A stretch of DNA of 63,047 nt, counting the filler, from Dugesia japonica (lineage: Eukaryota), in assembly GCA_001938525.1 (NCBI GenBank). It is 6 parts of 6 records of this genome, joined end to end, with 100 filler letters (N's around TTAATTAATTAA, not from the genome) between each part and the next. Parts side by side here need not be neighbours in the genome. Positions count along the whole stretch, not along the records: positions 25,438 to 34,364 come from MQRL01230547.1; 5 more parts are not named here. One strand, 5' to 3'. Positions 13,897-63,047 of this stretch are shown one piece after another. The position numbers were made by a program, and so were the translations under genes. The notes below the pieces were generated by a model, which saw only the letters and a list, made by a program, of their open reading frames with translations, ran no database searches and was not told where the DNA came from. How positions within the stretch are numbered: position 1 is the first letter of the stretch; each line of letters opens with the position of its first letter.

Positions 13897-14410
13897 TAAA
13901 GTTTAGCTACACATTAATTCTAAAAACAAATAAAATCATAAATGAATTGTCGGTTTTGATTTCTTCTCACAATTAAAATTAATTATTTTTCACTAGTTAA
14001 TTTATTTTAAGATACAGAACTAATTTCAACAAAGGAACTAATTTGAACTTCGGAATTATTTCAAACAAAGGAATTTTTCAGTACTGGAATTTTTACGATA
14101 AATTATTATGAATGATTATTTTAATTTCAATTAAATTGTTTTCATTATTATTGTTGGGGTTCCGTCTAAGTTGGTTGTTTTGTTTTATGACTGTGGGATC
14201 AGTCACCCTGCAGAACTCCACTAAGAATAAAATTTAGCATTCCTGAGCTAAATTTTCAGAATAAAACATGTGACTCACAACCCCTAGTTGAAATAATTGT
14301 CCGCATTCCTTTACTTTGCGGTCACAATTCCCCTTATTTTTAACTCTTTAAGAGACAATACAATAAAAATTATATTGATAAAACATTTATTTATACATCA
14401 GAATTCCTAT

Positions 14411-14745
14411 CTATGAATATGCCGAAGGATCCTTACTACAGTTGAAGGCGGCTTCATAATCTTGGTCATTCCACTGGTTGATTGCCAGAGTGCCACGCCT
14501 GGCGGCCAGATCTGTAATATACTGGGCCAGGAACGCGACCTTGCGGAACAATCTGTTTGCAGTAGCGTTGACAATCAATAATTGTTTCTTATAGACGGTC
14601 TCGAATTGCTTAATAATTTTATTTTTTCGTTCGATATGGCGTAGTAGCATACTTTCTCGTTGATTATAGTAACTTCGCTACAATAAAAGGCCACGAAACA
14701 ATTGATGGCATCTGATGAGACTATGCGGTAACTGGTCTGCTAGCA
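14411..14745 (-). pseudogene. Cassette ORF1 (copy A), unknown basic/helical protein
   Basis: ttttag|TG-LADQLPHSLIRCH...LLRHIERKNKII...QYITDL...W.DQDYEAAFN, with one internal stop. Homologous to 41942-42261. Confidence 0.8.
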
Positions 14746-14864: not shown

Positions 14865-15178
14865 AGTGTCGTGTATGTGTCGATTTATCTATAAAAAGAG
14901 GTTCAAGAGGTATTCGTGCTAACTGATTCTCCCGCTTTTATAACTGTAGAAAAATTGCCAGGTTGAATTTTACAGAGCGCACCTAAAAGTGTGAGAGTAG
15001 AGTTTCCTCCCGGAACTAGCGACATCACTTTTTATATTTTATTTTTGGCCTTTTCGGTGGCAATTTGGGCTTCCCAGTTTCGTTTGGATAGCCAATACAG
15101 CTTCCAAGACATCTCTTGGTCATCGCTGTTGTCATTTTGTCGTTTGCGTGCAGATGTAATAAGGATAATAATATTTGA
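14865..15178 (-). pseudogene. Cassette ORF2 (copy A)
   Basis: EMSWKLYWLSKRNWEAQIA matches MSWDLYRLAKRKWEADTA of 58412-58754. Confidence 0.7.
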
Positions 15179-15458: not shown

Positions 15459-15644
15459 TTAGTCATGACTTGGCGGCAATTCAAAGGTAAACATCTTGGT
15501 GAGACATGCTTGATCTGTCTCGCCTGGATATTCTACCTCGTTGGGGTATAATATATGGTTCACCAGCTGGTATAACCGTGCTAGTTCTCGCTCGTGTCGG
15601 ATGATATGAAAGATTAAGTGAAATGTTTCTAAAAGAAAATTCAT
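15459..15644 (-). CDS. Cassette ORF4 (copy A)
   Basis: RLYQLVNHIL...VEYPGETDQACLTKMF matches the HPDETDLxCF motif of the other copies. Confidence 0.75.
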   Translation of the reverse strand: MNFLLETFHLIFHIIRHERELARLYQLVNHILYPNEVEYPGETDQACLTKMFTFELPPSHD

Positions 15645-23700: not shown

Positions 23701-25337
23701 GATGAGAATGAGAATGTTACAGTTATTTCCATCATTTTTTGGAGATGATTTACTTGAGATTATTGTGAATGTCGTTCATGGTAATGTAACGTTAAGCAAA
23801 AATAGAAGAAAAGCATTGGAAAAACATAAAAAGTCGCTATTAACAATTATAAATACAAAGAATAAAAAATTAATGAAAAAGGTTTTGTATGAACAAGGTG
23901 GTGGCTTTATAGCAGCAATACTACCAATCGCATTAACAGTATTAGGACTTGCAAATATCTCATGAATAATGAGTCTGTGTCAAACAATAAGAAGAATAAC
24001 TTGAAAAAAGAATGATCAGAAGTACAACATGTAACAGTTTATTTAAATTATATTAATTAATCAATTGTTATTATTTATACAAATCCTAGGAGAATAACAG
24101 ACTTAGGAGAAGATTTAGTATTCTAGGTATCAGAAATATACCTGTACTAGATTAAAGAAAAGGCAGAAGTTGACGACAATGTATATGTTTTATTAAATCT
24201 TAGACAATAAATCTTGTTATTTAATTTACTTTTAAGTGTTTGATCTTAACATTTATTGAAAAAGTATAAAAGTTGAATGTATTGGGGGTAACTAATGAAG
24301 TGATTGAATCGCTAAATGTATATTTTAAGTGAATTGAATAAATTTTGATAAAATAAGTAAGGGTCTATATTAACACATAGTGTAATTTGGTTCTACTATT
24401 TCACACTGGATTTACTCTTTCTATTGGTTTTACTGTATCATATTAAATATATAGGTTCAATATGTTTAAGGAATGTACTAGGTTTATTGACTGTATTGGG
24501 TTAATGAATGTATTGAGTTTAAGGATTTGTATTGGTCTAGATTGAAGATTTACAAGTTTTGTCACATTTTCCTTTATAAGTTTAAAAATTACTAAAGATT
24601 TGTTTTATATACACGAATAATAAATTTTGGAAATTTGAAAAGATTATATTTATTGCAAACAATGAATTTAAACAAAATATATTTCAAATGTTAATATAAT
24701 TAATTAAAAATTTTAATTAAAATTATTTTTAATCAGTAATAGGTATATTTCGTTTTGAAATATAACTAAATAACATTCAAGTTTTAGGTACACTATTGTT
24801 AAGAATTGATGATTTGTACCCATCAAACAAATATGTGTAAAAATTTTTATTAATCCAAATGGAAAACCTTTGACATAGTTAAATAGAGTATGAAATATTT
24901 TATCATCGTATAACAATTTATGACTTCTTTGAAATATTGAATAATTTTCACACACTACTTGGAAATTTTGAATAATTTTTCAACACTTCTCTGAAACTCT
25001 GTATATATTTTTAATACATCTCAAAAATTCTTTATAATATTTCGACACTTCATGGAAACTCTGTACCCTTTTCGAACACTGCTAAAATAATATAATATAA
25101 TCATTTAACTTTCATCATCATCAATATGCCTGGATTTCTGCGTGCACCTCTGCCTACAACTCACCTGTCCCTCTGCTTTCTCCATTCGTTCTTTCATCTA
25201 AAAATTAAAAACAAACATTTTTAGTAATTTGTAGAAATATTTCCTTCATTTCTATGTATTTATGATTAATATAATTAAGTAAGGTAATTCTCCACTTGCT
25301 TGACTAGTACTTTACATTGAAAAATATCAAGATTCAT
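20762..25337 (+). mobile_element. Polinton-derived element (left terminus, internal repeats, core-protein genes)
   Basis: Terminus AGTAGATGGATACTAGAGCACTGG, degenerate internal repeats at about 20960-22300, the ORF at 23645, and a QASGELP fragment at 25280-25337. Confidence 0.55.
23645..23965 (+). CDS. Polinton/adintovirus small core-like protein with adenain-type cleavage motif
   Basis: Basic 106-aa ORF ending QGGGFIAAILPIALTVLGLA. Its N-terminus matches the gene downstream of the ATPase at 10615. Confidence 0.8.
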   Translation: MDLEKSLPFLTALIKSPAMMRMRMLQLFPSFFGDDLLEIIVNVVHGNVTLSKNRRKALEKHKKSLLTIINTKNKKLMKKVLYEQGGGFIAAILPIALTVLGLANIS

Positions 25338-25437
25338 NNNNNNNNNNNNNNNNNNNNNNNNNNNNNNNNNNNNNNNNNNNNTTAATTAATTAANNNNNNN
25401 NNNNNNNNNNNNNNNNNNNNNNNNNNNNNNNNNNNNN

Positions 25438-26930
25438 AATTTCTCCTCCACAAAAACTAATAATAAATAATAATTATAATAATAATAACAATAAATTAAG
25501 AAATCACAATAGTCAGATATTAACACAAAATGGAAAGATTTAGATACAGATAGAAGATTGGATATGATAAGAGAAATGCATCAGTTTCTAGCACACGCAG
25601 GAACAGAAAACGTTGCCAAATATATTAGAAACATTATGACATGACTAGGTTGGGTGAAATGTAAAGGAAATTGTAGACAGATGCAAAGCATGTCAGCGTG
25701 TGAAAGTAGTAACAACTAAATCTAAAGAAGAAACTATAAAATCTGAGTTGGCGAGGCCGTTTGAGAGAATATCTATTGATATAACATGACCATGGCCAGA
25801 AACCTTCGATCAAAATAGTAAATATATCTTTGACAGCAACAGCAAAACAAGATGAAGAGTCAATAACACGTATGTTAAAAGATAACTGGTTATTAAAGGT
25901 AAGAGCTCTGTGATATATTCATACAGATTGTGGTAAGATACTTGAATCACAAAGAATGAAGAAATTCGCCGATAAGATGAATATTAAGCTATGTTTCTCA
26001 AATCCTTATCCCCATAATACGAATGAACAGGTAGAAAAGCAATTTCGGACTATCATAGACTGAATTCGGGCATCAATAGCAGACAGAAACGCAAAGAATT
26101 GGGCAGAAATTCTACCACAGATTAAATTTGTGGCGAATGGGACAGTTCAAAAACATTAGGTAAAAGCCCGACAGAAACGGTTTTTGGTAGAAAAATTTGC
26201 AGATAAAGATGGTTTCCACCTAGACAACTAGAGTTCGAGAAGATAGACAATATACCGAAGGTTACGTACCCAACCAGGAGAACATTCGCTATTGGAGATG
26301 CAGTGCTTATCAAGGAGGGGACAAGAAATAAGGACCAGGATCGTTTTGTAGGTCAATTATTAGTAGTAAAAAAGATACATGATCGAAGATATTTGATTCG
26401 AGATGATCTGGGTCGGATAATAGAAAGAAATGTTCAATAGATCAGAAGATTTCTTAAAGAAGGGGGATTTGAGTATGATATTTGAATTGTTTGATTTCAA
26501 TTTTATTTGCGCAATTAAATATTTATAGTTTATTAAACTTAAAATATTTCAAGAAACTAATTAAAATAATTATTGCGTATATTTGTTTGAATTTTAAAAC
26601 TATTCTAATTCAGTGTTTTCAATTTAAAGAATCTTTGTCATAAATAAATGTTTGATGAGGATAGCGTTTTTCTTGCTAATAGTGCTAATTGTAATGGTTT
26701 GGTTATCAAAGTGAAAGTGCGATTGAAGGTGCAATTAGGTGAGAGCATATCGGAAGTGGAATCTATTGTAGCGGAAAATTTGTTTCCAGATATTATTGCA
26801 GGGATAAATTTCAAACGTATTTTTGTATTCCAGTTATGTAGAGAAATTGGGTTATCCAGAGAGATAAGGAATGGAGATTGTTGGAAAACATTGAAGCCAA
26901 TTTTGGTAAGAACTTTCAATATTGTCTAAA
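25438..26930 (+). mobile_element. Ty3/gypsy 3' end: integrase pseudogene, polypurine tract and 3' LTR remnant
   Basis: HQFLAHAG...CKACQ (HHCC), RPFERISIDI, IHTDCG and TNEQVEKQFRTI. PPT AAAGAAGGGGGA at about 26456-26467. Confidence 0.88.
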
Positions 26931-27169
26931 CCGGGAAAATATTTGACCACATCATCCAAATTGACTATTCCCGAAGAAACATTCAATCAAATCACCAAAC
27001 AATTACCCAAACTAACAAATCGCGAGTAAATATTTCACCAAATCATTCAAAAATTATTCTAAACCAATCAAAAATTAACCTTATTGACCTCGCCGAGGAA
27101 ATAATGTATGATGATTCAATGGTTTGATAGTAAAAATAGAGTAAGCCAGTGCTACACTATCTACCTATT
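26930..27169 (-). mobile_element. Polinton-type terminus with subterminal minisatellite
   Basis: Ends CCAGTGCTACACTATCTACCTATT. Internal repeats are related to 30900-31460 and 34040-34364. Confidence 0.55.
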
Positions 27170-27429
27170 ATTATCTTTACATAAAAATGCATAGTAGGTA
27201 GATTGTGCAACATTGACACAGTGCATTTAGTTGGTATTTTAAAAACAACCAAAAAACGTTGTTTACAAATGAAAAAATTGAAGACCAAATTTAAAAAATT
27301 TAATTTTTAATAATTAATTAATTAAATATTAAAATGTAATTATATCTATATCAAATATTTTTTCTGTTAAAAGATTTCTTAAAATATAAGTTATTAATTC
27401 TCAAATTTGTTTCTTTATTACTAATTACA

Positions 27430-27792
27430 TTTCTATTATTAAGAGAAGAATATCAATTTGAAAGGTCTTTTGTAAAAATAATTGTAGAACAAAAAATTGA
27501 ACCGCAATAAATTTAAGAACAACCCCCCCGTTCTTTATTTTTGCGCAGACATATGCAACTGTTCAAGCGCGCACGTATCCACCACGTTGGTTGTTGTGGT
27601 ACATTTGTTGTACAAATGTTTTATGAGGATAGCGTTTTTCTTGCTAATAGTGCTAATTGTAATGGTTTGGTTATCAAAGTGAAAGACATGCAACTGTTTC
27701 AGCGCGCACGTATCTACCACGTTGGTTGTTTTTTATACAATTACTTTTACAAAAGCTTTTATAAATTTATATTCTTCTCTTAATAATAGAAA
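27430..27792. repeat. Foldback (MITE-like) with internal direct repeats
   Basis: TTTCTATTATTAAGAGAAGAATAT and its reverse complement form the arms. About 45-bp direct repeats at 27548-27596 and 27686-27730. Confidence 0.75.
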
Positions 27793-27834
27793 TTTTATTA
27801 GTTTGATACAAAATAACTAATGACATTATAAAAG

Positions 27835-28253
27835 TCAAGTCCCTTTGTTTGGTGCATTATTCTCGGATTCGCCCCCGTCAGCGATGTTTCTCAGATCCCA
27901 TAAAGTGTTATTTTTGTCACTGTATAATCTCGTGCTGGGTGGTACGTGCTCGACTGAGATAGAGATCACTGATGGACCTGAACGCCATTCACTAGTAGTC
28001 TCAATTTCCCCAGTATTTATATGCGGGAACGCGGTGATGGAATGATATACTTCTCGGGCCCGATCCGGGCTATTCCAAGTATAAAAAACCTGACGTTCGG
28101 CTTCGGCCCATTCCTGCTCGTTCTCAGCGTCCTCCTTTTCTAAATTCAAGTAATCTACTAGGACGCCCGCATTCCGATTGTAGGCATTCGTGTACTTCCT
28201 AAATATTGTGCGACCAGTGCGTTGGTCCAACAAAACTTCCTATTTGTGATTCA
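27835..28253 (-). pseudogene. Cassette ORF3 (copy B)
   Basis: ttctag|TG-NHK*EVLLDQRTGRTIFRKY...EDAENEQEWAEAERQVFY, homologous to 42972-43391. Confidence 0.85.
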
Positions 28254-28378
28254 CTAGAAAAATAAAATGGGTTTTTGTTCATAAAAAGAATTTAGCTAAT
28301 ATATTAATTAATTCTATAAGAAACTCGAACATAGGCTCAATAAGTTTATTATTTTATAAAACGTTAACGATACTACTT

Positions 28379-28564
28379 TCAGATTTCTGTGTCGATATCC
28401 ACCTGAAAATTCGGAGGAAACCTCTCAACGAAATAGCTAAGATCCGTTTCGTCAGGATGTTCGACTCTTCCGCGAGAAAAAATGCAGGCCAGCAGTTGTT
28501 TTCAACGATCAACTCGACGCTGCTTTCAGATGATCTGGAGGGAATTAATGAGCTCTGTTGTCAT
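28379..28564 (-). pseudogene. Cassette ORF4 (copy B)
   Basis: tttag|TA-ATG, then KQLLACIFSRGRVEHPDETDLSYFVERFP. Two internal stops. Confidence 0.8.
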
Positions 28565-29792
28565 TACTAAACGTATGAAAATTGATTATTAATAAGTAGT
28601 AGAATCACCCTATCACCTAGTGGGTAAAGATGTAAGTAAAAGTAGTTCTTATCAGCTGGAATCAATGTAAAAGGTTGGGTGAACTACATGCGCTGGCATA
28701 ATTTTATGTGATAGAAAATATAATTGTAGCTTTCGCTTATTAACTGAAGCAAACCCTCGTTATCAGTAGGGGATAAAAACCTTCTCGGTTATTCATTTAA
28801 AGCTGTATTTGGAACTGCTAACTACAACTATGCGCTAAACTTTATTGAATTATAAAATTATGATGAATAAAAAAATTTTTTTAATGACATTTAATAACAA
28901 AACAACTCAACTGAAATCTAATTACTCATATACCCTTTACTACCTGTGACAAAATCAGTAATAAGATAAAATCAAGTCTACATATATGGTGATTACGAAA
29001 ATACTCTTTTCTTGATGGTATAACGCTGTTGTTCTCTCAACCCACATTATCGTGTGAGTCACAGGATGAAATTATCGTTGATGTTGGCAGAGTGATTATT
29101 TTAAATCCAAATTTTCATGACTTCCAAATATCATCCGCATGAAGGCTGAATACCTAAGTCAAGTATGGAACTTCACTTTGTAAAAAAATCATATTAGATT
29201 GGTGCCTCCCTAAATTCTGTAGGTGTTATTTTACAGAATAGTGGCCATTGCTAGATACATAAAAGTGGTTGTTTTTTCTTCTTTTTTTGGTCGATAATTT
29301 ATTGATGAGACAAATAAAGATATTAGCTGATACTAGATAAGGTTTAATTCAATAGCATAATGACTGTGTCAGAGATTTCTGTTGATACATACATGTCTTG
29401 TGTGTATGTCACGTTATTTACCAATGAGGTCATTTATTGATTTATCATACCTTTGTGAAATGAGTGCAGTAGTCCTAATGGTTGTATTAGTTTATGTGGC
29501 AATACGTGTGGTGACTACTGGTTAAACAACGACTCTACCATACTAGATAATTTCATTCATTAATCCATAATCACATCAATGATGGCTAAAAATAGTAACA
29601 AGAATGAAATGGAATCTTTTAGTGACTAATGATTTCCGGTTTAAACCGAATGTTAGCAGTACTTAAACAGATCATAAATAAATATTAAATTAATGATTAA
29701 TGTCACACTTATTTTATTAATAATGTAGTAACTAGACTTCATTTGACAAGTATTTATTAAATAAGCAAAATTCATGATTACAAAACGAATTT

Positions 29793-30495
29793 TATAACAA
29801 AGACTGAATAATTACGATTTTCTGCAACGGGAACGAGTAAATAGGTCTATTTTCTTTATGACAAAATTCTGGATGATGGTTCACTAATATTTTTCTCGGG
29901 TTCACTTGACTATTTTGATCTGTAATAAGTTAACGTTAACAATCCACTGAATAAGAGACCAATGTTACTATGCCGAAATTATTCTTTGATCTATTCTACT
30001 AATTTGCCCAACAAAGTTTTTTCAAATAATTCACAGCGTTGATAGTAATAGAAAAGTTTTCTCTTCGATAGATCAATAAATTTCAGAGATGCTACAATAA
30101 TTCTCAGTCGCTTACAATTTATGAAAAATGTGTGCTGTTTTCTTCTAATTTTCATGGGGCTTATATAGTTTACCAGATACAACCCAACATTATTGCAATT
30201 GGGCTTCTTTTTTTGATTCAAAATTCTGGTCTTTCATTGGTTCCGGTGCTAATTTTTTTAGATTTTTCATAGATTTTTGGCTTCTATTGGTGACTATTTT
30301 TGGAGTGCCATGTGATGATCTGGTCTTAGTTTTATTTTCCTTTTCTGGCCCCTTGTTGGCCCATTTGTCTAACCCTTGTATGGACCTTCCTGATGGTGCT
30401 ACGATTTTCGGGTTGACAAATTCTATTGCCCCAGATCTTTCGCTTTCTAGATTTTTTTTACGAGTCACTGTAAGTATGTCGAGCGGAGATAATCA
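29793..30495 (-). pseudogene. Cassette ORF5 (copy B), basic ~230-aa protein
   Basis: tttttag|TG start, KENKTKTRSSHGTPKIVTN, and end PVAENRNYSVLL*. Homologous to 61115-61828 and 40260-40800. Confidence 0.65.
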
Positions 30496-30899
30496 CTAAA
30501 AACTGATTTTCGTTCAATTTCATTTTATTTTTTCGTCCAAATTAATTAATTTTTCTGTGAAAAATAATTATTTTCCAATAAAAATTTTTTTTGTCTTTTA
30601 TTATTAATTTGATAATTTTCTTTAATTACTGGTATGGTTGCTGGTTAATTTTTGTTCACTCAAGATCTCCATGTCCATCTTCTTTTTATTAGTTTTTGTT
30701 ATATTTTAACAATATTAGTTATTTAAAATTGCTTTTCTTTTCGACTTCTTTTACTGATTGATTATTATATTCTTTCAACTGCGTTTTCTTCCCAACCACC
30801 GTTTTCAATGTTTTATGATTTGGGCCCCTGGCCTTGATTTCTTCTTAACTGGGTGCTTCACCCCAACACTATCAAACCATTGAATAATCATACATTATT

Positions 30900-31460
30900 T
30901 TCTCAGTGAGGTTGAATAAGATTAATTTTTTAATGATTTGGTGAAATATTTCCTCAGGAATAGTCAGTTTGGGCAATTTTTGGATAATTTGGTCATTTAT
31001 TTCCTCGGGAATCGTTAATTTGGTTCATTTTTGGGTGACTTGGTCAAATATTTCTTCGTGATTGGTAATTTTTTTGGTGGTTTAGGTAAAATTGGTTGAA
31101 GATTTCTCGGTGAGGTCGAATCTGGGCAAATTTGGTCGGTTTTAGGTGAATTCAATCAAATATTTCTTTGGGAATGGGTAATTTGGGTAATTTTGGGGTG
31201 ATTCGTTCAATGATTTACTCAGGAATTGTCAATTTGGGTCAGTTTTGGTCAATTTAGTTCATTATTGGGAAGTTTGGTCTAAAGCTTTCTCGGTGAGGTT
31301 GAATGAGGTCAATTTTTGGTTGGTTTTGGTGAATTTGGCTCAGTTTTGGACGATTCGGTCAATTATTTACTCGAATTTGGTAATGTTAGATTATTATTTC
31401 CTCGGGATTGGTGATTTTTTGGGTTATTCGGTCGAATATTTCCTCGGATAGATTAGTTTG
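30900..31460. repeat. Degenerate ~40-bp minisatellite
   Basis: Recurring ttggtcaaatatttcctcggga and ggtgaggttgaat units, the same family as 34040-34364. Confidence 0.8.
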
Positions 31461-31499
31461 TATGAATTTTAAGGAAATTCGTGTAAAAAGTTGGATTTG

Positions 31500-31998
31500 T
31501 TTAAATTTTCAAGTTTTCTTGAGAAAGAAAAAACAATCAACTCTCAGTATAATATAAGCCTATTGGACCAATTGGATGACAAAATTCGTGGAAAATAACC
31601 AGGTTTGCAGAAGAAAAAAATCATTTTTCTGCTAGAAAATTCACAGGCGTACAAAAGCACTTTGACCATGACAAAATTCAATGAATTAAAGTACGACTGG
31701 CTTGATCATCCACCTTATTTACCTAATTTAGCTCCATCAGACTTCTTTCTTTGCTCAAACCAGAAAATATTCTTATCTGGAAAGCGTTTTCGTAACAATC
31801 AAGAAGTAATTGATGCTGTACACAGCATTTTGGCAAGTCTTGATGAAAGTCATTAGAACCAAGGTATCCATTTGCTAGAAAAACGTTGGACTAAATGTGT
31901 TCAGCTAAAAGGAGTTTTTGTAGAAAATTAATGTAATTTTTGAACAATAAATGTTTTTTTATTCTTTTCATTTTCAAAACGTTTCAAAAAGCCTTCGT
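31500..31998 (+). pseudogene. Mariner transposase C-terminal fragment
   Basis: KKKIIFLLEN...LDHPPYLPNLAPSDFFL...GKRF, followed by LEKRWTKCV. Confidence 0.9.
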
Positions 31999-32719
31999 AC
32001 TTTGATCATTTATCTCAAATATTAATCTTTTTCATCCAAAGTGATCCATTCAGACTGATTGAATTATTCTTATATTTTCGCTCCATGTCACCATTGTTAT
32101 TTATCGCATTCATTATGTCACTAGATAGCATCATCAATGTGATGACTTGGGCAATTTTTGACAATAAAGTCAATTGCATCTTAAATTACAAAACAATTAT
32201 TGATAATATGTAAAAACATCTTTTACTTTGATAAAAATTATCTTATTTTAAAATTTATTAAGTCAAAATTGTCAAATTAATCTACATCACACGATAAAAA
32301 ATCAACACTTTTTAATTAAATACACTCGATTGTTTTTAATATTTATTCTCATTAATTATCATTGGTAATTCTCAGATAGTGAAATGATACCAAAAACCAT
32401 TTTTATAAAATTCAAAAATTCTATGTTTTGATTTTATAATAAAGCATGTATTCTTTGATATAAATTCTTTACACAAAATATGGATAGTTTTAAATTCTCT
32501 ATCGAAATGTATCAAAATATTATCAAATATATGAATATTTCGCGTTTGTACAGGGGTTTTTTTTAATTTAAAATTTAAAATCTTTAATAACTAATATGTC
32601 AGATTGAAATGCTAAAATAGTAGTAATGTCCATCATATTATTACACGTACAACAATACCATTATCATTATCCTAGCATGCATATACTTCTTTTAAATTCA
32701 AAATTTTAAACTTTAAAGT

Positions 32720-33400
32720 CTTTGTTACAGCGCGCCACTGAGAATTAAGTCGAATTACAATGATGGTGACTACTTGATTGCCACCTTAAAAGATTTTCCA
32801 ACAAAGAAACACACAAGACATGGATTGTTTATATATATTGGAATGTCAGCACAACCTGTTGTCACAAGATAGGCAAGTTGGTTGAATGCTGCAAAGTACT
32901 ATGCTGAACACTTTGTAACGATTAAAGCAATTATTGACAACTTTAAAGATGATGGAACAATTGTTAAGCGAGCAAAACAAAGTGTTTTAAATCCAAAAGT
33001 AACCGAGACTTTTCGAGAGGATGTCAAAATTATATTGTTTTGGCTAAAATTATTATTATTCATACTGAGAGTACAGATTACACAATTGAGTCTGTCTTTA
33101 AGGAACTTTCTGAATTGTATTTCATTAAATATCCATGTCATATTAAAGAGTAAAAAGACAGAAGATTTGTGAAAAATGGTATAATGAGCCATAAAATTTC
33201 CTTATTAAGTTCAAATATTGATCAAAGAAGCCAAATTTTATTTTATATGTTTAAAAAATGATTGCCCTAATAATGACAATAAGGGATATGAAAACGGAAT
33301 CAATTTCACCAATGTTATTTTTGTAATGAAATGTCAACCTACTTCATCTTGTGTTGAAAGAATTTTTCTAGGCTGAATAAACTTTTGGCAAAAGACCAAA
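32720..33400 (+). pseudogene. hAT-like transposase remnant
   Basis: QPVVTR*ASWLNAAKYYAEHF (TRW motif) and CQPTSSCVERIF (hAT C-terminal motif). Confidence 0.75.
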
Positions 33401-33884
33401 ATATAAAGTTTTACATTGTTTAATAAAATATAAAGTCTTGATATATTTTTCATTTATAAAGCTCAATTTTCTTAAGGTTGCTAAGCAGTGATAATTGTTT
33501 AAAACATAAAGTCAAAAATTTGTCAAAACTTTTCACAAATTAGTCAAAATATTGGTCAAAAAAATCAGACTTTGTCTTTTCATAAGGTTAAAAAACGATT
33601 GTCCTAGTGAAGACATTCTACAGTTTAAAATCGGTTTGGTGTGTACTACTAGTTAATAATAATGCTAACTGCACTCCAAGCATTGATAATCGTTTAAATA
33701 AAAAACCCAAAATTTAAATCCAAAGAACATTTATTAATTTAGTTGAAAGATAATAAAAATAAATATTATGTAAATGTTGACATTTTGAATTTTAAAATTT
33801 TGTTTAAGCAATTGACAATTTATTGAAAAGTGTTGTATTAGATAATGATGATTAGATTTCATCATTCAAGCATTAATGTACATA

Positions 33885-34364
33885 AGTAGATAGATAGTAG
33901 CAGTAAAGAACAGCACACATTCAATACGCCCCCTCCCATCTATGTAATCGGATTATTACATAACTGTTTTTAAATTTTTCTAATGTATTTAGTTAGGAAA
34001 GTATTTTAGGCTTTTTACACAGCAATATTTTTTAAGCTGTTTAGTTGGGAATTTATTCGGCGAGGTCAAATAAGGTCTATTTTTATTGGTTTTAAGTGGT
34101 TTTTGTCCAAAAATTTTTCAGTGAGGATGAATAAGGTCTATTTATTGGATGGTTCAGGTGAATTTGGCCAATTATTTCCTCGAGATTGGTTGGTTTAGGT
34201 AACTTTTGGGCGTTTTGGTCAAATTTTTCCTGATGATTTTTGGGTGATTTAGGTGAAATTGGTCCAATTTTTCTTGATGAGGTCGAATGAGGTTGGATTT
34301 TGATTGGTTCTGATGAATTTGGTCGAAAAATTTCTCGGTGAGGTTGAATAAGGTTGATTTTTCA
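33885..34364 (+). mobile_element. Polinton-type terminus followed by minisatellite
   Basis: AGTAGATAGATAGTAGCA...CCCCCTCCC, then ~40-bp repeats running to the gap. Confidence 0.55.
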
Positions 34365-36329: not shown

Positions 36330-36779
36330 ACATGTCATTGATTGTATTGATATTAACTAATTATTATTTATATCATTCAAGATTATCCATCTCATTTTGA
36401 TTACTTTTAGAAATTTGATTTTCTCAATAAATTTACATCAATGTTCACCTTCGAAATAATTTAAAATGAAGTTTGAAATTAATAATTAAAATCTATAAAT
36501 TAGAAATGATAATTTAAAAATTTATTATTAAAATAAATAATTAATAAAGAGATGACATGAAACTTGATTCCTTGACATGTGATTTCTGTTAGTTGCTCCT
36601 TTGGAAAGTTGATATCATGAACAGTTTATACCATAGATTATAATTTAATAGAATACGATTGACAGTTGAACATTTTTAATAAATTAATAAAAATGTGTAT
36701 TTATTTTTAATTTTAATAATAATTTACAATAAAAACAGAAATTTAACAAATATTTTATTCATAAGATAAATGACCAATT

Positions 36780-41941: not shown

Positions 41942-42261
41942 CTATATATATAGAAAACTAAATGCGGCTTCGTCGTCAAGATCGTGCCAACGGATCCACG
42001 CCTCATTCCCCAAACGCTGGTATAAATCCGTTATGTAGTGTTGTAAAAAATCAATTTTATGTTGCAGAATCTGCTTTGTTTGTTCGGCTAAGTCGCCCTG
42101 CTTCTTAACTAAAAGGTCGAGTATTTTAATCAGTCTGTTCCGTTGAGTTAAGTGTCTTAGGAGTGCCCTTTCATTTTGGCGTCTGATATGCCTTTCTAGT
42201 AATAATTTTTGAGTCATTAGATGACAACGACGTAAGCTATTTGGGAGTTGAATTCGTAGCA
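41942..42261 (-). CDS. Cassette ORF1 (copy C), intact
   Basis: ttttag|TG-LRIQLPNSLRRCH...ALLRHL...FLQHYITDL...W.DLDDEAAFSF, with AATAAA at 41934-41939. Confidence 0.85.
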
Positions 42262-42412
42262 CTAAAATGAAGAACAATAATTAAAATGGAGAATCTTTTG
42301 ATCCCGGTTAGTAATTAATTAGAAAAGAAAAACTTTGTCTCAACTAAAACGAAAACTAAATCAATATAATTTAAAATTGTGTTTATTTACAAAGACATCA
42401 AAAGATACAGAG

Positions 42413-42772
42413 TCATGGACGGGAGGTTTGCGTGCCTTTGTCGATCATTACCGGCTCAAGCGACATTTTCTGTTTAAGCTCTAAAACTTCGTTAACCAGT
42501 TTATTTTCACGGTCATGGGGGGACCGGATGATCTCGGTGAAGGATTCTATTTGTGCTTTTATATATCCTCTCTTGAGCATGAGAAGCTTCTACTTTTTTA
42601 CGGAAAGCTACACATTTCGCCTTATATCGCCTGACTTTAGTATTTGAAACAGCCACGTCAGCCTCCCATCGACGTTTTGCAAGGCGATACAGATCCCATG
42701 TTATTTCGAGATCTTCGCTAGATTCACGCACTTTTTTAGTGGGAGCAGCGGAACAATTTAAGGATGAATGCA
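42413..42772 (-). pseudogene. Cassette ORF2 (copy C), one frameshift
   Basis: ttctag|TG-HSSLN...TWDLYRLAKRRWEAD...KCVAFRKKVEASH / DRENKL...LEPVMIDKGT. Confidence 0.85.
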
Positions 42773-42971: not shown

Positions 42972-43391
42972 TTAATTATCAGTAGTGGCGTTGGCATTCT
43001 CCGAATTTTCACTTTCTCCGCCATTACGCACAACCCAAAGATTGTTTTGCAAAAATGTCGTTAAACTTGAAAATGGAGGAAAACGATCGGTAGAGATGCT
43101 GATCATAGAATGGCTTTCTACCAAATCACTTCTAGTACTAATTTCCTCATTATGAATTGGAGGAAAAGCCGCGATAGAATGGTACACAGCTCGCTTCAAA
43201 TCAGGGCCGTTCATTTCATAAAACGTACGTCGCTCGGCTGCGTACCATTCTCTTTCCTCCTCGGCTTCCTTTGCCGGTAAGTTAGAATAATTAGTAGATA
43301 CCCTCGCATCTTGGTTATCGGGGTTTTTATACCTTTTAAAGACCGTTCGGTCGGTTCTCTGATCCATCAAGACTTCCCAATTATATTCCAT
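42972..43391 (-). CDS. Cassette ORF3 (copy C), intact 139 aa
   Basis: cctag|AA-ATG, then MEYNWEVLMDQRTDRTVFKRY...EAEEEREWYAAERRTFYE..GPD. Three homologs in the window. Confidence 0.85.
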   Translation of the reverse strand: MEYNWEVLMDQRTDRTVFKRYKNPDNQDARVSTNYSNLPAKEAEEEREWYAAERRTFYEMNGPDLKRAVYHSIAAFPPIHNEEISTRSDLVESHSMISISTDRFPPFSSLTTFLQNNLWVVRNGGESENSENANATTDN

Positions 43392-43507
43392 TTCTAGGAA
43401 ATTATAGTAAACGTTTATCTAGATTAGCGAGATCATAATAATAATATATTCCATTTCTAGGAAATTATAGTAAACGTTTATCTAGATTAGCGAGATCATA
43501 ATAATAA
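43382..43507. repeat. 63-bp tandem duplication covering the ORF3 acceptor and ATG
   Basis: tatattccatttctaggaaattatag...gatcataataataa occurs twice. Confidence 0.95.
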
Positions 43508-43582: not shown

Positions 43583-43774
43583 TCAGCTTTCTTGATCACG
43601 ATCTACTTGGTGAGATTTACACGGAGAAAAAAGTTCTGCAAAACAGAGGAGATCCAACTCATCCGGGTGTAAAATTAGAGACGGAGACAAGATGTGCCCT
43701 ATTAATTGTTTCTTCCGTGATCGTTCCCGTTCTTGTAGGATTAATATATGGGTTTGTATTAAAATGTCGGTCAT
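43583..43774 (-). CDS. Cassette ORF4 (copy C)
   Basis: MTDILIQ...KKQLIGHIL...HPDELDLLCFAELF. Start chosen by alignment with the other copies. Confidence 0.8.
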   Translation of the reverse strand: MTDILIQTHILILQERERSRKKQLIGHILSPSLILHPDELDLLCFAELFSPCKSHQVDRDQES

Positions 43775-44539
43775 GAGCAGGTTGTTTCCTAATTGATATA
43801 ATATTAAAATGAATTCTAAGAAGACTACATGGTTTGCAATCAGAACACCGGCTGCTGTAATCCCGCTGGTTTCCCCTTGCAATGCCAGCAAAAATACTTA
43901 GCTTAGGGCACCTGGTAATTGAATTTATCAGTCCAAATTATTGTATAAAATAATATCGTTAATTAGTGATTAGCCTATTAAAGATGCTAATTCCGAAGTT
44001 AACTACATTTACAAGGATAATAAGTTCAGTAATTATCAGGGTAGAACATTGGAATTGCACCTGCTTTTGGTCACTACTAAACAATAATAATATTAGTATG
44101 ATTAATAGAAAAAATAATATTGATATAGTATTCACAAATTAGGATATTGCTCATCAGATTAATAACGGCGGTGTTTATAAAGACATTACTAATTTGGTCA
44201 TTCCTAGGACTAAACTTACCATAATGACATCGCGTTAAGAACTACATATAATAGTGATTACAAGATTTATATCGACAAGGTTAGCAATATTAATACGGAT
44301 ATTCACAATAACAATAATAACAAGGATATTATTAATAATAATACTAGTAATGATAGTACCCGTAATAATAATAATAATAATTTTATTAACAATAATACCC
44401 ATAATAATAATTTTAAGAATAATAATAATTATTTATACGGATTGAACACAGAGGAACATAATAACAAATACATACATCGTCACAATAATAAAGGTAAGGT
44501 AAAACCTGTCACCATTCGCAATCGTAATCCATATATATA

Positions 44540-55495: not shown

Positions 55496-57889
55496 ATATT
55501 CATATATTCGAAAATTTTAATTTATTATTAAATCAAATTTCTTTTCAGTCAAAATTCAAAATTTAAAAGCAAATATTCGTTTTTAAAACTTTTTATCTAT
55601 AATTTAAATCATTTTTGAAATAAAAGATTTTTTAAAAAAATTATCACCAATCACACAAAAATTTCAACTTGCTTTTCAAAACATACTCACAGTATTATAA
55701 TATTATATGATGTCAGAACATTATAGGAAATCCGAATTGCAAAATTTAATAGTTATTCAAGTCATTGTTTTATATTAAATAAAAATATTACTTTAGAAAC
55801 CTTGTGCCGATTCAAATCGCAAATAAAATATTATGTTGACATCATCACATTAAATTCTGGTTTTTAGATCGCATTATATCCTATTAAATGTTATTAAAAA
55901 TTTCTTTTCGATAGGAAGTGAAAGCTTTATGTTTGTGTCATACTTTCATTATTCAAAGTATTCATTCAATACTATGATTCTTAATTACTCGTATAAGATT
56001 TTCATAAAATAATAAGAGTATATGCTATTTTAACTACAATCATTAAATTTATTAATAGTTATACAGCGATAGATATTTTTGAACGAATCATTTAATGAAA
56101 AATTAAATAATCAAATCAACCAATTCCATTAGAAAAAACCTTTAATAGATTTAAAAGGAATTCGTCTTAAAATACAGTATGAAATTAAAACATTAATAAT
56201 AAGAAGAGGTCATTTTGCGATCATAACCAGCAATATGAGTAAATTATTCAACTAAAATCATTTGAACTATCTGAGTATTCTAAAAATAAGCAATAATTGC
56301 TACTAATAAGCTATTGAATAAGTATTACTTGCTTGTCCCTTTGTTGGTCTAACTGATGAAAATATCAATGTCTTAATTTAATGTATTAAAAATATCTAGT
56401 TTAAGATTCTTATATTCAACGATGAAACCAATGTTTCCGTGAAAAAACAAATGTTTCCATTATAAAAGCCACATTTTCATGATAAAACCAGTATTTTCAC
56501 GATAAAAACCCTGTTTTCCATAAAACTTATATTTGCATAATAAAACCAGTATTTTCATGATAAACTCGATGTTTTAAATGATGAAACTATAACTTTAGCT
56601 ATTGAAACTAAAATTTTCAATGATGAGATCAATATTTCTAATTATAAGATCAGTATTTTGTATGTTGAACAATGTTTCAACAATATTCTTTAACAATGTA
56701 TTTCAATGTTGTGTATTTAAAATAAAAAAGAAACCTATAAAACAAAAGTGCAAGCAGGGTTGCCAATGAGCAAGCAAAGAAGTTGAAGTATAATATGATT
56801 ATTAAAATATACTGAAATATTTTTATTATTTTAAATATAATGCACTTTATACTTGGTCTCACTCAGTCTTATTGTCTTCCTTTATTAATATATGTCACTT
56901 TTTAAAGATTATTGATGTGAGGTCTATGAAAATATGAAGTAAAAATATGCATTAAGACACAATAGAAAATAGAGAAAATATAGCTAAATGTGGATAAATA
57001 GGAGTAAATCAGGCAAATACGAGTAAATGACTAAATTATGGCAAAATATGTTAAATCGTGTGACAAATAGTGTATAAATTAAACATACTAAATGACAATG
57101 TATAGAATAAATGCAGTATAATTAGTGACTAGATTTACTCTATTAAATATAGTCCAAACTCATATTTTCTAATTGTAAAATTTGAATTTTTTTATGATAA
57201 GTCCATTATTTTCTTGTAGTGAAACTTGTGTTTTCATTAACGAAACGGAATAATAATGTATAAATTATAGTCAAAAGATTGATTTTATTGATTGATAATT
57301 TGGTATTTAATGGAACAAGAAACCAATAAAAACCAAGGTGCACACAGAGTTGCCATAGAGCAAGCAAGGAACCAAGAATCAATCAAGGAGTCAAGAAGCA
57401 AGCAAAGATGAATGCAAATAGTGAAGGATTTAATTGAAGGGAATACCTATATTTAACAAGATAGAACTATTATGTTCATGTTGAAACCTATATTGATATC
57501 AAGTTGTAATGGACTTAATCCTTTGTCCAATAAAATAAACCATGAGTCATTATTATCATTTAAAACCTTTTATAAAAATATAAAGAAAATGTGGGTAAAT
57601 CCTGTAAAATATGAGAAAATCAGGCAAATTAGACCAACGTAGTGTTGGGGTCCCACCTGAGACGTGACAGTGACTGGGGAAGAACAGTCCTCAGGGGAAC
57701 CCTTTCAAGAATTTAATCCTACCGTCCCTGTGGTAGGTTTTCAGTTTACTGCGGTTGACCTTACCCTTGATGGAAGGTGCACGCCAATAAACCTTTAGTT
57801 TGGGTTCTATATACTTTCCATATTACTATTTAAGAGAATTAAACAATTTCTTACAATTCGAATTAAAATATTTATTATCAAAAGAACAT

Positions 57890-58262
57890 TTAAATCAGAT
57901 CTAAGGCGCCCAGATCTAACCATTGATCGGGGGTGGTGACCACAAAGTTAAATGCCGCAATATCGTCATTCTCATCCCACGGTGTGACGTTGGGATTGCC
58001 GATCTGATTGGACAGGCCAGCAATATATTGCTTCAAGAAATCTATCTTGCGTTGTAAAAGGAGTTTGTTTTAGTTTTAGTTTGAGTGGCGAAGTCAGCTT
58101 GCTTTTTCACTATTGTATTCAACCTCTTAATGAGCTTATCCCTCTGGCTTAAATGTCGAAGTAGAGCCTGGTTGGTTTTGCGTCTTACATGCCGGTCTAC
58201 TAACAAACGACGCATGATGCGGTGAAAACGGCGTAAACTGGTAGGAAATTGGATGCGAGGCA
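57890..58262 (-). pseudogene. Cassette ORF1 (copy D), one frameshift
   Basis: tttttag|TG-PRIQFPTSLRRFH...ALLRHL / KQYIAGL...PWDENDDIAAFNF. Confidence 0.85.
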
Positions 58263-58411
58263 CTAAAAATGAAAATTAACATCAATTCGAGAAAATTTCT
58301 TAATAGAAAAGTTTATACAAATACTGGCTACTATTAGAAGATTCAAAGAACAAAACAAGTCAAAATAGCAAATTTTATTAGCAAGGTGACCAATCAATGG
58401 CTTTGGGGTGT

Positions 58412-58754
58412 TCATGTGCCTTTATCCACCATCAAAGGTTCTAATGGCATAGTCACCTTTAGTTTGAGAATATCATTTATCAGTTTATTTTCGCGGTCTT
58501 GATAGGACCGGATCATTTTAGTCAAGGACTCTACCTGACATTTCCATACCCGCTCCTGTGTATGGGATGCCTCAACCTCCTTGCGAAACGCCACACACTT
58601 CTTCCTATAACGACTCACTTTACTACTGGCGTTGGCAGTGTCAGCTTCCCACTTACGCTTGGCTAATCGATACAAGTCCCATGACATCTCGCGATCTCAC
58701 TATCCTCGCGTATCTTTTTCGTAGGAGCCAAACTGCGATTCAAGGAGGAATGCA
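58412..58754 (-). pseudogene. Cassette ORF2 (copy D), 5' frameshift
   Basis: tttag|TG-HSSLN / MSWDLYRLAKRKWEAD...KCVAFRKEVEASH...LEPLMVDKGT. Confidence 0.85.
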
Positions 58755-58934
58755 CTAAATTTACATAATCAGATATTGAATTCCATACCTTAAAGGTGAA
58801 ACAAATATTTTTAATTAATTTAAAGAGCTCGTAGCAAATAGCCTATTATTACAGTAAACAAATTAAAGGAAAATGACAACGATGTATTCTCAGAACACAA
58901 AAACATATAACCCAACAAAGGCTGGATGACCAAT

Positions 58935-59338
58935 CAAGCTGAAGGTTCGGCATTCTCAACCGAACCACCACTTGCCTGGTTACGGAGCTACCATAAGTTA
59001 TTTCCAAGATCGATCGCGAAACTGGTACTTCGAGATAGATGACCAAGTGGAACTGGAAGCAAGGAAGGTCCGTCTTGCNAATGAGTACTAACATGATTAA
59101 TTAATGAGTCAACCATCGTGACTTGATGAAGGACTTCACGGCTACGATCAGGGCCTGCCCATTCATAGTAAGCCCGGCGCTCTGCGGCCGCCCATTCTCT
59201 CTCATTTTCTGCTTCTTCTGGTGCTAAATTAGAATAATCCACCATGATGCCGGCATTGCGGTCATGTGGATTACGATAACGTTTGAAAACAGTTCGTCTA
59301 GTATACCGATCCCACAATACTTCCCATTTAAAATCCAT
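58935..59338 (-). CDS. Cassette ORF3 (copy D)
   Basis: MDFKWEVLWDRYTRRTVFKRYRNP...EAENEREWAAAERRAYYEWAGPD...NNLW. The 3' end is uncertain. Confidence 0.8.
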
Positions 59339-59528
59339 TTTTAAGTTCTATAATAAATAGTGGATTAAGCAAGATCACAAAACAACAACAAAAGGAAATA
59401 GTGAAAAACACTTAATTAACATTCAATTTTTTATTCAAGATGAGTAAAGCACGAATTAACAAACGCAGTTAATTATTACGGCCATTTGATTAAATTCGCG
59501 TGACTGGGGACTTGATTTGGAGAGTGGG

Positions 59529-59711
59529 CTACTCTTCATCTATGTCCGCCTTATGTTCAAGGGGAAACATCTCAACGAAACACTGTAGGTCTGTTTCGTC
59601 GGGGTGTTCTATGGCTCCATGGGTCAAGTAGTGAGCAATTAACTGCTTGAGTCTAGCGGCTTGACGACGACGTTTAATCCACTTCAACATGCGGCGCAAC
59701 TTTGCTGGCAT
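59529..59711 (-). CDS. Cassette ORF4 (copy D), intact 60 aa
   Basis: gttttag|CCG-ATG, then RLKQLIAHYL...IEHPDETDLQCFVEMFP. Confidence 0.85.
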   Translation of the reverse strand: MPAKLRRMLKWIKRRRQAARLKQLIAHYLTHGAIEHPDETDLQCFVEMFPLEHKADIDEE

Positions 59712-61114
59712 CGGCTAAAACAGAAATTATTACGATATTTACACTAATATCTTATACTTGCTAAAACAAGGGAAGACATTATTATCTCAAACTGTAGCAG
59801 GGTTGATGTACTAAGATTTTACGCATTGGGCATATGAACGGCGTAGATATCGCGCAGTGTGACGAGTTTACTTCCTAATTGATGTGTAAGATATTGCCGT
59901 GAGTGTCTTGGACTAAAATTATACTTGGTCAAGTGTCAAACAACCTTTTACGGTTGGCATTAACCATGCCCAATGGTCTAATACTCAGTGAAATCCCCAT
60001 TATCTGTGTTATTAAAATAATTTTGGAATTCATTTTGCCGATCGTGGGGAGGGTTGTAACTATTTTACTGATAACGACAAACAATAAATTTAGTACCTTC
60101 ACGGGTGATAATACTGGTGATCGATGCTAAGTCCAGTAATAAGCATAAAATAGATATCCCAATAATAATGATAGTATTATCGCTATTCATAAGAATAAGC
60201 ATGATAAGAATTCTATAATCGAATTAATACTAGTGATAATAAAAAAAAATTTAATAATATTAGTGAGACGACGGATAAATTATAATACGGAGATAAGTGA
60301 TATCCACCTTACGAAATATGATCAATTTTATTTTCTCTAAAATAAAGCAAGTTATCGTGATCATTGCTGATGTCATCGTGTACTTTTCCATCACTAATTA
60401 CTTGTATGTGTGTCTGGACCTATTGTGAATTCGATCACGTTCCACACACATTATCAATGCATCACCAATAAGATGAGTTTTCCTTCCCTTTTCTGTGAGT
60501 AATCGATGCTCAGTAATTCGGTTAGTTTAGATAAGTTGTGCAGTGATATTGGTAATTTATTTCATATTTTTAGAAATTGGTTATTTGTCTTTAAACTTAG
60601 AGTTACAAATGTGATTACTGGTATCAATTACGGATAAATCTCAATCAGATCTGTCAACTTCATCCGCATCTCCTAATTGGCCTTAATCAATTAAGCTAGT
60701 AATTCTATGGAAATTTATTCGTTCAAGTGATATAATCTCCTTTTTTCGTGATGGATCTCTTTGTGGATTTTTATTCATAATACTATGCTCTGAAAAATAT
60801 GTTACTGTAATGTCGATATTTATGTGTCTTGATGAGATTAGGGTTTGATTTATCAGAAGGTATTAATTATTCTTAACAATCTGGATCGAATGGCAGGTTC
60901 TAGTAAGTAATGTCTATTGGTATAAGTGCATTTATGCTAAAAATAAATATTGTGCCATTCATCGTCTTTTTATTAATATTTCTCTTTTTATTATAAAATT
61001 TGAAATAATAATATCACATAATCTTACATAGCTAATTTAAAATATTAAATTATAATATGATAAATTTTATTAACACATATCGATTATTTCATACCCAATA
61101 ATAAAAATTAACGA

Positions 61115-61828
61115 TTACTTGAGAATGAATGGTAGGATTTCTGCAACGGTGGAACAACGGCTAATAGTCGAAAGCTTCTCTTTTTATATATTTTCACTGA
61201 GCTCGCCTTCTGAATTCGTGAAATTCATCTGCTTTAATTTGGAGGTTTAACTTCTGCAACTATTGTAAATGTGATGATATCAACTAGTGATTACCGTTTT
61301 CTTCTTCGCAAGGTTTATTAACTTGAGATAATTTTCGTTGTCGTAACTTATTCAACCGAGAGTTCGTTAAGCATAATTCTTGAGTTGAGATTTTTTCGTG
61401 TTAGTCGCGCAACTTGGTAAAATAAAAAATTTTTATTCGTTTTTTGACTTGAAAACTGGAGGTCCTTATATGTGGTTTTCTGGACACCCCAACTAAGTTC
61501 AGATTTGCCAGTATTTTTAGACCAGCTCCTTTTCAATTTTATTGGTNNNNNNNNNNNNNNNNNNNNNNNNNNNNNNNNNNNNNNNNNNNNNNNNNNTGGT
61601 GCCATGATTGGCAACTATTTTTAGAGCAGCACCTGACATCGATGTCTTTGTTTTATTTTTATTTTCTGGATGTTCATTGGCTGGTTTTTGGATTCCTTAC
61701 TGTACCCCTCTGGAAGGTGGTACGTTTTTCTTTTTTAAGATTCTAGTTGCACCGGCTTATTTTCTGTTCAATTTTTCTTGTTTGAACTTTTTCTGACGTC
61801 CTGGGCTGGAGTTATCGGTAAAAAACAT
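61115..61828 (-). pseudogene. Cassette ORF5 (copy D)
   Basis: attag|ATAAAAAT-ATG, KTKTSMSGAALKIVANH, and end TVAEILPFILK*. Confidence 0.65.
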
Positions 61829-63047
61829 ATTTTTATCTAATTTTGTTTATTTTTTGTTTGAAATTAATTAATTTTTCTACATTAATTAATNNNNNNNNNN
61901 NNNNNNNNNNNNNNNNATTATTTCTTTTATTTTATAATTTCTTTTTAATTTCTAATCGTAAACAACTTCCGTTTTTCATATCCTTTTTTGATTTTGTTAC
62001 GTTTTCTTTTTATGGCTGCTTCTGATACTTTATTTCCTTTTTTGCTGACTATTAGATTCGACGTTGCCTTATTTCATACTTTAGTGGGTGTTTTACCCCA
62101 ACAGTAGTGTAAATGAAGGCAAAGCTAGGTTAATAGGGTTAAAACAGGGGAAAACAATGTGAATAGGGTAAATTGTAGTAAATTACGGTAATCAGGGTAA
62201 AATAGGATAAAAACAGGTTTAAAATATAAAAGTTTATGAAGAATATGGTAAAATAAGATAAATTGGGCAAATTATTGAAAATTCTGGCAAAATTAGACAA
62301 AAACAAAGTTAAAAGAGAGAAATTAAAGAAGAAATATTTGAATTTTAAACCAATAAATGACTATAAAATATTATGAAAATCAAGTGACTCCTCCGAGGAA
62401 TAATAATATCTNTTTTTGATTCTCATTTANAAATAACCATTAAATAATAATTACATATTAATATAACAAAGTAATGACTAATATTTATTCAGATCTTATC
62501 ATTTACCCTTGAAATTCGATAAAATCTTCAATTATTTGTTTAAGGATTACAAACTTAAATTTTTCGCATAACCAAATTCTTTTCTATATTATTGTTATCA
62601 ACTTTTATTACACATTTAATATCTATTCCAAAACAATCATAGACTTTGCTCCAATATCTTTCTTGATTCCCATTTTGTGATAGTTTTTTTTAGATTTTTA
62701 AATTTACTTTCCAAAATGGTTTTTATAATTTCTAAAAAAATTAATTAATTAGTTAATTCAAATAAACCATACATTTCTTTTCAGTATATAGAAATTGATC
62801 GTCTTCAGAATCAACATACCAATTTTCATCATCTGATTTCTCTTCAAAATCGAAATATTCTCTTTCATCTTCGCTATTATAAGGCATTGATTCATTTTCC
62901 ATTAAATTTCTAATTTGTTCGCTCATTATTCTTATTTATCCTAATAATAATTCGATTTAGTTTTTAATTTCTGAAATCTAATATTATAAGTTTAATTGTT
63001 TAAATACAGTGTTTGCATGAAATGAAAAACTTTCAAATTTATTTAAA

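Follow-up and report, generated by a model that had tools for sequence, protein, structure and literature searches.

Start codons completed by splicing are already known for one errantivirus gene, and spliced open reading frames (ORFs) within a long terminal repeat (LTR) are known for mouse mammary tumor virus (MMTV). An array of A|UG starts across LTR-borne micro-genes would, if true, be a new variant. Here, we describe a candidate for such an array in a stretch of 63,047 nt, filler included, from the planarian Dugesia japonica (GCA_001938525.1). This stretch, referred to below as the window, consists of six record parts joined by filler, with positions 25,438 to 34,364 coming from MQRL01230547.1. 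It holds four decayed copies of a cassette of small ORFs, several of which begin with TG directly behind a splice acceptor (ag|TG). This ag|TG feature is real and under selection.

In the springer subclade of the errantiviruses, the available text on env describes a start codon that is completed by splicing to the AU of the methionine codon, AU|G (bioRxiv 10.1101/2023.08.03.551782). Springer env resembles the proposed cassette in belonging to an LTR element and in having a start codon made by splicing. However, the springer split is AU|G and concerns a single gene of the internal region, env, whereas the cassette would use A|UG for three to four unrelated micro-ORFs inside a terminal repeat. 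No springer-type junction was found in the cassette: its exons begin with TG, the conserved frame is phase 1, and neither Pfam at curated cut-offs nor PDB sequences (no match below E 0.36) gave any match to the cassette ORFs or any homology to env. In MMTV, the sag ORF lies in the LTR, and a leader from the 5′ LTR is spliced to an acceptor just upstream of it (PMC3026287). The cassette is likened to sag by layout only, in that a long LTR contains the ORF and splicing joins an upstream leader to it; the portion of PMC3026287 at hand gives one ORF in a 1.3-kb LTR and does not mention a split start, whereas the cassette has four to five ORFs in about 4.5 kb.

Among planarian elements, Burro/GYPSM1 are giant, very high-copy Ty3/gypsy elements of over 30 kb, with a single huge Gag-Env-Pol polyprotein of about 5,000 amino acids and an upstream accessory ORF (PMC6431247, accessible part). 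They share very high copy number, accessory ORFs and the likely host group with the carrier of the cassette and are the obvious candidate carriers of the unit; the description in that part of PMC6431247 includes neither LTR-borne micro-genes nor split starts. The sORF1 and sORF2 of the MDG1 group are also small accessory ORFs of gypsy-type elements, but are located ahead of gag and need no splicing for their expression, according to the available section of PMC11952523. The reported flatworm spliced leaders all end in ATG, a whole start codon in phase 0, as far as the available text of PMC12582326 goes. Like the leader favoured below, a spliced leader is a single 5′ exon that is joined to many acceptors and may bring the start codon with it; unlike it, it is short and in phase 0. 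The cassette ORFs, by contrast, require phase 1, and 381 upstream bases are present in one RNA contig. Within the partial coverage of our literature search, no description of A|UG starts in LTR ORF arrays or of planarian LTR micro-genes was found, and the available parts of PMC13524379, PMC8532177 and PMC11410931 hold nothing on LTR-borne ORFs.

TG behind the acceptors of the cassette ORFs

Self-comparison of the window revealed the four cassette copies (A to D), with the ORFs in the same order in each and 130-330 nt between successive ORFs. The first-pass annotation of this DNA had listed seven ORFs that begin with TG behind an acceptor and had proposed that one leader ending in A supplies the missing letter. 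All seven coordinates (14745, 28253, 30495, 42261, 42772, 58262 and 58754) were recovered on the minus strand, each with a T-rich tract and TAG ahead of the TG; the same tract and TAG also precede the ORFs that have their own ATG. Among 15 ORF starts in the four copies, TG stands behind the acceptor in seven, an own ATG lies 1-14 nt behind it in six, and neither is present in two, both of them in the decayed copy A. By comparison, TG follows 40 of 636 acceptor-like sites counted window-wide (6.3%) in this DNA of 27% GC. The seven TG sites have at most four independent origins (ORF0-B, ORF3-B, ORF4 and ORF5), and TAG|TG is kept in 3/3 copies of ORF5 and 2/3 copies of ORF4 at about 60% DNA identity. 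Tabulation of acceptor phase over the four copies placed the TG sites in phase 1 and the own-ATG starts in all three phases (offsets behind the acceptor of 1, 2, 14, 2, 3 and 9 nt).

At six of the TG sites, no in-frame ATG occurs upstream before a stop. The exception is 30495, the one weak entry in the original list: an in-frame ATG lies upstream of it on unspliced DNA, AG and TG are both absent from the aligned place in copy D, and the mismatches of ORF0 by codon position (29/15/29) show no third-position bias. ORF3, which had been put forward as the clearest case, proved to be so. In copies C and D, an own ATG follows the acceptor after 2 and 9 nt, respectively; at that codon position, copy B carries TG. 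The split codon of copy B aligns with the first methionine of both and with that of P0001 (94 aa), which starts alike (M-E-N-K-W-E-V) and is the sole outside relative found by profile search among 1.84 billion representatives. With no methionine in the 134-codon body of ORF3 in copy B and no in-frame ATG upstream, translation can begin only at the split codon or within an upstream exon.

The codons ahead of the first in-frame ATG were compared between copies C and D. Differences over codons 2-20 of ORF4 are synonymous in 10 codons and replacements in 4; over codons 2-15 of ORF5, they are synonymous in 6 and replacements in 5. When the two are pooled, third positions account for 23 of 36 mismatches (one third expected; p = 1.7e-4), and the other two frames of ORF4 and ORF5 contain stops or mostly replacement changes. 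The codons right behind TG are coding and under purifying selection ahead of any ATG. The annotated direct continuation of five frames holds in that these are open behind TG; stops follow at codon 5 (28253) and codon 23 (14745), and frameshifts occur farther on (42772 and 58262). Altogether, six of the seven TG-type ORFs are disrupted by stops or frameshifts, and 42261 alone is open (105 codons).

The unit that carries the cassette

The TG...CA ends of the copy D unit and its 4-bp target-site duplication (CTAC), the latter seen in this copy only, suggest that the unit is probably a solo LTR whose 5′ part holds the ORFs. Copy B has the same start as copy D and copy A the same end. Copies A and D share a terminal block of ~185 bp with two units that lack the cassette and end at 18186 and 47420. 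AATAAA, a frequent motif in this DNA, stands 240 nt from the unit end in copy A and 234 nt from it in copy D. All units in the window lie on one strand, and the family is transcribed and very abundant in this genome. The two cassette-free units (18186-20080 and 47420-49019, minus strand) end in CCCAACA and contain no recognisable ORF cassette.

Two findings tell against an LTR. No gag-pol, primer site or second LTR linked to the unit was found in the window, and LTR identity and polarity are therefore putative. In addition, copy C, in which TG...CA ends were not seen, has a 154-bp inverted repeat of 98.7% identity (41612-41765 and 44540-44693) where the other copies have ends; one arm of it ends at a gap, and it does not match the terminal block profile. 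Ginger-like DNA transposons have TGT...ACA ends and long terminal inverted repeats; the inverted ends of copy D comprise only 9 bp, and the longer repeat of copy C has one arm at the gap. Copy C had been considered as such a transposon, and this candidate was dropped once the termini of copy D were found. The inverted repeat of copy C also holds an A|GTAAGT donor motif (41636), which points away from the cassette.

Two fragments on the strand opposite the cassette (26207-26440 and 55293-55520, plus strand) gave no Pfam match; by their motifs, we take the first to resemble a gypsy integrase C-terminus and the second a gag N-terminus. If these fragments are linked to the unit, the cassette would be antisense to gag-pol.

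RNA contigs at copy C and the source of the first base

The RNA comparison covered copy C alone, with two of the seven TG sites, in six runs and with matches at 80-82% likeness; the results refer to the matches listed. Run X1 was taken as RNA by guess, X2 served as the comparison run, and X3, X4, X5 and X7 are raw-read runs. Two controls were available for X1. A 2,128-nt contig follows a host NTR-domain exon between a point 12 nt past its AATAAA and the acceptor AG, where the match ends, and 0/180 contigs on copy C are 99% alike vs. 59/1,642 in X2. These controls indicated that X1 behaves as spliced poly(A) RNA.

The matches of X1 records 6 (depth 86.7) and 7 (depth 18.3) end exactly at 43393, where the exon of ORF3 in copy C begins. 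Both come from related copies, with 43 and 50 differences to copy C in 340 nt. Because the match of record 6 excludes the G at 43394, the exon is apparently preceded by a base other than G. Record 6 carries 381 further bases, which match nothing in 34470-44280 among the matches listed; they are too long for the flatworm spliced leader, with its length of about 40-50 nt, and compatible with a leader ending in A. Over 43420-43499, X1 has depth 0 and X2 has depth 72, and X2 record 14 crosses to 43410. These data point indirectly to a long cis exon in record 6 that is spliced to the ORF3 acceptor; the same pattern would arise from a paralogue that is rearranged or has its acceptor shifted. Moreover, 43393 is an own-ATG acceptor, and hence splicing there shows no split codon.

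The annotated view of the AG sites as true acceptors thus gains from the selection behind TG and from the contigs that leave at the ORF3 acceptor, and lacks a joint at 42261 or 42772. The accompanying argument, that the flatworm spliced leader would put these exons out of frame, was borne out: the phase-0 readings of ORF4 and ORF5 are not conserved and contain stops or mostly replacement changes, and record 6 at 43393 does not fit such a leader, whereas record 3 at 42773 would fit one.

We favour, with slightly better than even confidence, a non-coding leader ending in A that is cis-spliced to alternative acceptors of LTR-borne ORFs and completes AUG at the ag|TG sites. The 4.5-kb unit would be the LTR of a large retrotransposon and would hold a row of four to five small genes. 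One spliced RNA would be made per gene, with the acceptor just ahead of each small ORF, and the upstream leader exon would supply the first letter of AUG for the ag|TG genes. This leader would probably begin near the LTR 3′ end or inside the element, and its donor would be absent from solo copies, as for MMTV sag; the position of the cassette inside a TG...CA, target-duplicating unit thus offers a reason for the failure to find the donor. Should the cassette instead be driven by an internal promoter or run antisense to gag-pol, one of the sites near 44200 could be the donor. A giant planarian LTR element with four to five unrelated micro-genes, to each of which one and the same non-coding A-ending leader is alternatively spliced, is a tentative extension that we hold with considerably less confidence.

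Two candidate donors in copy C are marked by the 5′ end of record 8. This contig starts exactly at 44219, which would give a donor G|GTAAGT with the intron from 44219 (chance 0.0003 per position). If the contigs overlap by 30 bases, the donor would be A|GTAATG with the intron from 44189 (chance 0.002 for AGTAA). The record therefore supplies either a G, in the 44219 reading, or an A, in the 44189 reading.

Several results weigh against the A-ending leader. The RNA support comes from one run, with contigs about 87% alike to copy C, and no joint at 42261 or 42772 is listed in the six runs on this copy. The first base of X1 record 3 (depth 9.6) is the G at 42773, as would suit unspliced RNA or a leader with a terminal G rather than A. 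X1 records 1 and 2 run unspliced across the ORF5 and ORF4 acceptors (depth 14 and 22); such crossing is expected of pre-mRNA or 3′-coterminal RNAs and lends no support. Record 6 is unbranched over its 381 upstream bases; judging from the way assembly graphs break, a leader common to several heavily used acceptors of that copy should have produced branches. Furthermore, the best donor motif in copy C ends in G (ATG|GTAAGT, 44219) and is the one at which an RNA contig starts, the alignment of the upstream parts of copies A to D contains no conserved donor, and the donor-like motif of the terminal block follows T or G, never A. The raw-read runs showed almost no depth on ORF2, ORF3 and ORF5 of copy C, partial matches of poly(A) reads to ORF4 motifs from both strands, and no joints.

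The alternative that survives best, although we consider it unlikely, is that the TG sites are GUG starts, with the G taken from the acceptor in unspliced RNA or from a leader that ends in G, for which the flatworm spliced leader and the 44219 donor are candidates. GTG is in frame at 7/7 sites, and the ATG-ending flatworm leaders, the starts of records 3 and 8 (at the G of 42773 and the GTAAGT of 44219) and the unspliced passage of records 1 and 2 all agree with it. However, an ATG-ending leader would lay an out-of-frame AUG over the GUG, and the other frames close early or lose conservation. Neither the 381 upstream bases of record 6, with apparently no G at the joint, nor the T-rich tract and TAG at all sites, including those ahead of own-ATG ORFs, would be expected from GUG starts. 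GUG initiation is weak in animals.

A little less probable still is a coding upstream exon joined in phase 1, in which case xTG would be an internal Leu, Val or Met and the products would share an N-terminal peptide. Peptide leaders exist in errantiviruses (env of ZAM, Beagle and idefix, in the available text of bioRxiv 10.1101/2023.08.03.551782), and every TG site as well as three of the six own-ATG starts (offsets 2, 14 and 2) are in phase 1. The other three own-ATG starts (offsets 1, 3 and 9) are in other phases, however, which removes the need for a coding upstream exon and argues moderately against this alternative. Moreover, a coding exon would leave nothing to hold TG at three unrelated ORFs against the 6.3% background, and the split codon of ORF3 in copy B coincides with the first methionine of three relatives.

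We assign the same low probability to a splice-built AUG with separate upstream exons or internal promoters for each ORF or subfamily. The unbranched course of record 6 is consistent with separate leaders, as are the donor-like site that record 8 marks inside the unit and the lack of a common donor among the copies. On the other hand, the same base A at several unrelated ORFs would be simplest with one donor, and the spacers between the ORFs contain no promoter or donor in a conserved place. Finally, an origin of the TG sites by chance or decay, with the ORFs using later ATGs or having lost their starts, is very improbable and already largely excluded: the AT-rich DNA with its many acceptor-like sites, the unconserved site 30495 and the broken state of most copies would suit it, but the retention of TAG|TG in ORF5 and ORF4, the synonymous excess ahead of the first ATG and the RNA contigs that break at an acceptor do not.

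If the A-ending leader exists, unspliced or upstream-spliced RNA would offer no AUG at the TG ORFs, and each mRNA would yield one protein. The spliceosome would then pick a single accessory protein, which would amount to a complex-retrovirus-like expression programme in a retrotransposon and to a compact way of making a polycistronic stretch strictly monocistronic. As the family is very abundant and transcribed, the cassette proteins could be an overlooked part of the interplay between transposon and host.

Predicted products, feature list and neighbouring sequence

Structure prediction gave one long helix for ORF5 of copy C (residues 7-83, 77 residues) with a predicted local distance difference test (pLDDT) score of 84.5, and an unusable model for ORF3 (pLDDT 40.8). 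ORF4 resembles ORF5 by sequence, and as a guess, both products may be basic coiled-coil regulators. No homologue was found by searches with ORF3 of copy C and ORF4 of copy D or by a search of longer proteins with the ORF4 alignment, and no relatives were found in viral contigs or metagenome contigs. The ESM Atlas gave no usable match for ORF3 and scores of 0.81 or less for ORF5, and Rfam gave none at the gathering score, with two chance matches at E over 2. Since the TG ORFs have no ATG in the DNA, they are missed by gene callers, which fits their near absence from protein databases. The coordinates of the cassette copies, unit ends and ORFs are listed in Table 1.

Table 1. Cassette copies, carrier-unit ends, ORFs and candidate donors in the window
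Feature	Position	Strand	Description
Cassette copy A	about 14.4-16 kb	minus	self-comparison
Cassette copy B	27.8-30.9 kb	minus	self-comparison
Cassette copy C	41.9-44.3 kb	minus	self-comparison
Cassette copy D	57.6-62.1 kb	minus	self-comparison
Copy D unit	57643..62103	minus	4,461 bp; 9-bp inverted ends TGTTGGGGT...ACCCCAACA; CTAC duplication on both sides
Copy D 3′ end	57643..57876	minus	AATAAA 234 nt from end; conserved ~185-bp terminal block, putatively U5-like
Copy B 5′ end	30686..30868	minus	TGTTGGGGT...; 62% like 5′ end of copy D over 196 columns
Copy A 3′ end	14152..14391	minus	AATAAA 240 nt from end; terminal block; CCCCAACA
Copy A ORF2 relic	15459..15628	minus	acceptor, then AA; no ATG
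Copy A ORF4 relic	15044..15178	minus	acceptor, then TC
Copy A ORF5	14411..14745	minus	ag|TG at 14745; premature stop at codon 23
Copy B ORF0	30190..30495	minus	ag|TG at 30495; weak case
Copy B ORF2	28385..28566	minus	own ATG 2 nt behind acceptor; disrupted by stops and frameshift
Copy B ORF3	27835..28253	minus	ag|TG at 28253; premature stop at codon 5
Copy C ORF2	43583..43788	minus	own ATG 14 nt behind acceptor; 63 codons
Copy C ORF3	42972..43393	minus	intact, 139 codons; own ATG 2 nt behind acceptor
Copy C ORF4	42412..42772	minus	ag|TG at 42772; frameshift near 42560
Copy C ORF5	41942..42261	minus	ag|TG at 42261; open for 105 codons
Copy D ORF2	59529..59714	minus	acceptor at 59714; own ATG 3 nt behind; 60 codons
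Copy D ORF3	58988..59347	minus	acceptor at 59347; own ATG 9 nt behind; premature stop after 116 codons
Copy D ORF4	58412..58754	minus	ag|TG at 58754; frameshift near codon 20
Copy D ORF5	57890..58262	minus	ag|TG at 58262; frameshift near 58070
Two candidate donors, copy C	44180..44220	minus	both marked by 5′ end of one RNA contig (record 8)

Further observations were made on single copies. A segment of ORF4 in copy C that contains DRENKL (42495-42529) has a summed contig depth of 52,226 in X2, compared with about 7-8 for exact-match contigs; this depth is not a copy number, and the segment belongs to a very large family. The acceptor and ATG of ORF3 in copy C are included in a perfect 63-bp tandem duplication (43382-43509), which creates a second acceptor at 43456 and an 11-codon ORF. 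In copy A, a perfect A|GTAAGT donor motif that was not seen in the other copies stands directly behind the ORF2 stop (15458, minus strand). Upstream of ORF2, additional ag|TG sites occur on the minus strand at 15901 (copy A, open for 32 codons) and 44073 (copy C, 11 codons) and are candidate starts by position alone. An AAT-rich block also lies upstream of ORF2 in copies A (15994-16305), C (44214-44582, plus strand) and D (60160-60260), and in copy C its opposite strand reads as an Asn-rich open frame of 122 codons.

The host exon used as a control for X1 (35887-36443, plus strand) is an expressed terminal exon with an NTR/C345C domain (Pfam E 1.4e-11) and a poly(A) site 12 nt behind AATAAA; its gene is presumably agrin-like. 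An argument from the orientation of the cassette inside a host intron was dropped because this exon is terminal. The window contains five 100-letter gaps (44 N, 12 letters, 44 N) at 10653-10752, 25338-25437, 34365-34464, 44694-44793 and 53386-53485, across which adjacency is uncertain. A decayed Polinton-like element occupies 810-10359 and 23615-23965, with Pfam matches to endonuclease VII (E 1.4e-8) and a TBP-like domain (E 3.4e-14) and weak matches to an A32-type ATPase. A perfect 220-bp inverted repeat lies at 1-220/3241-3460.

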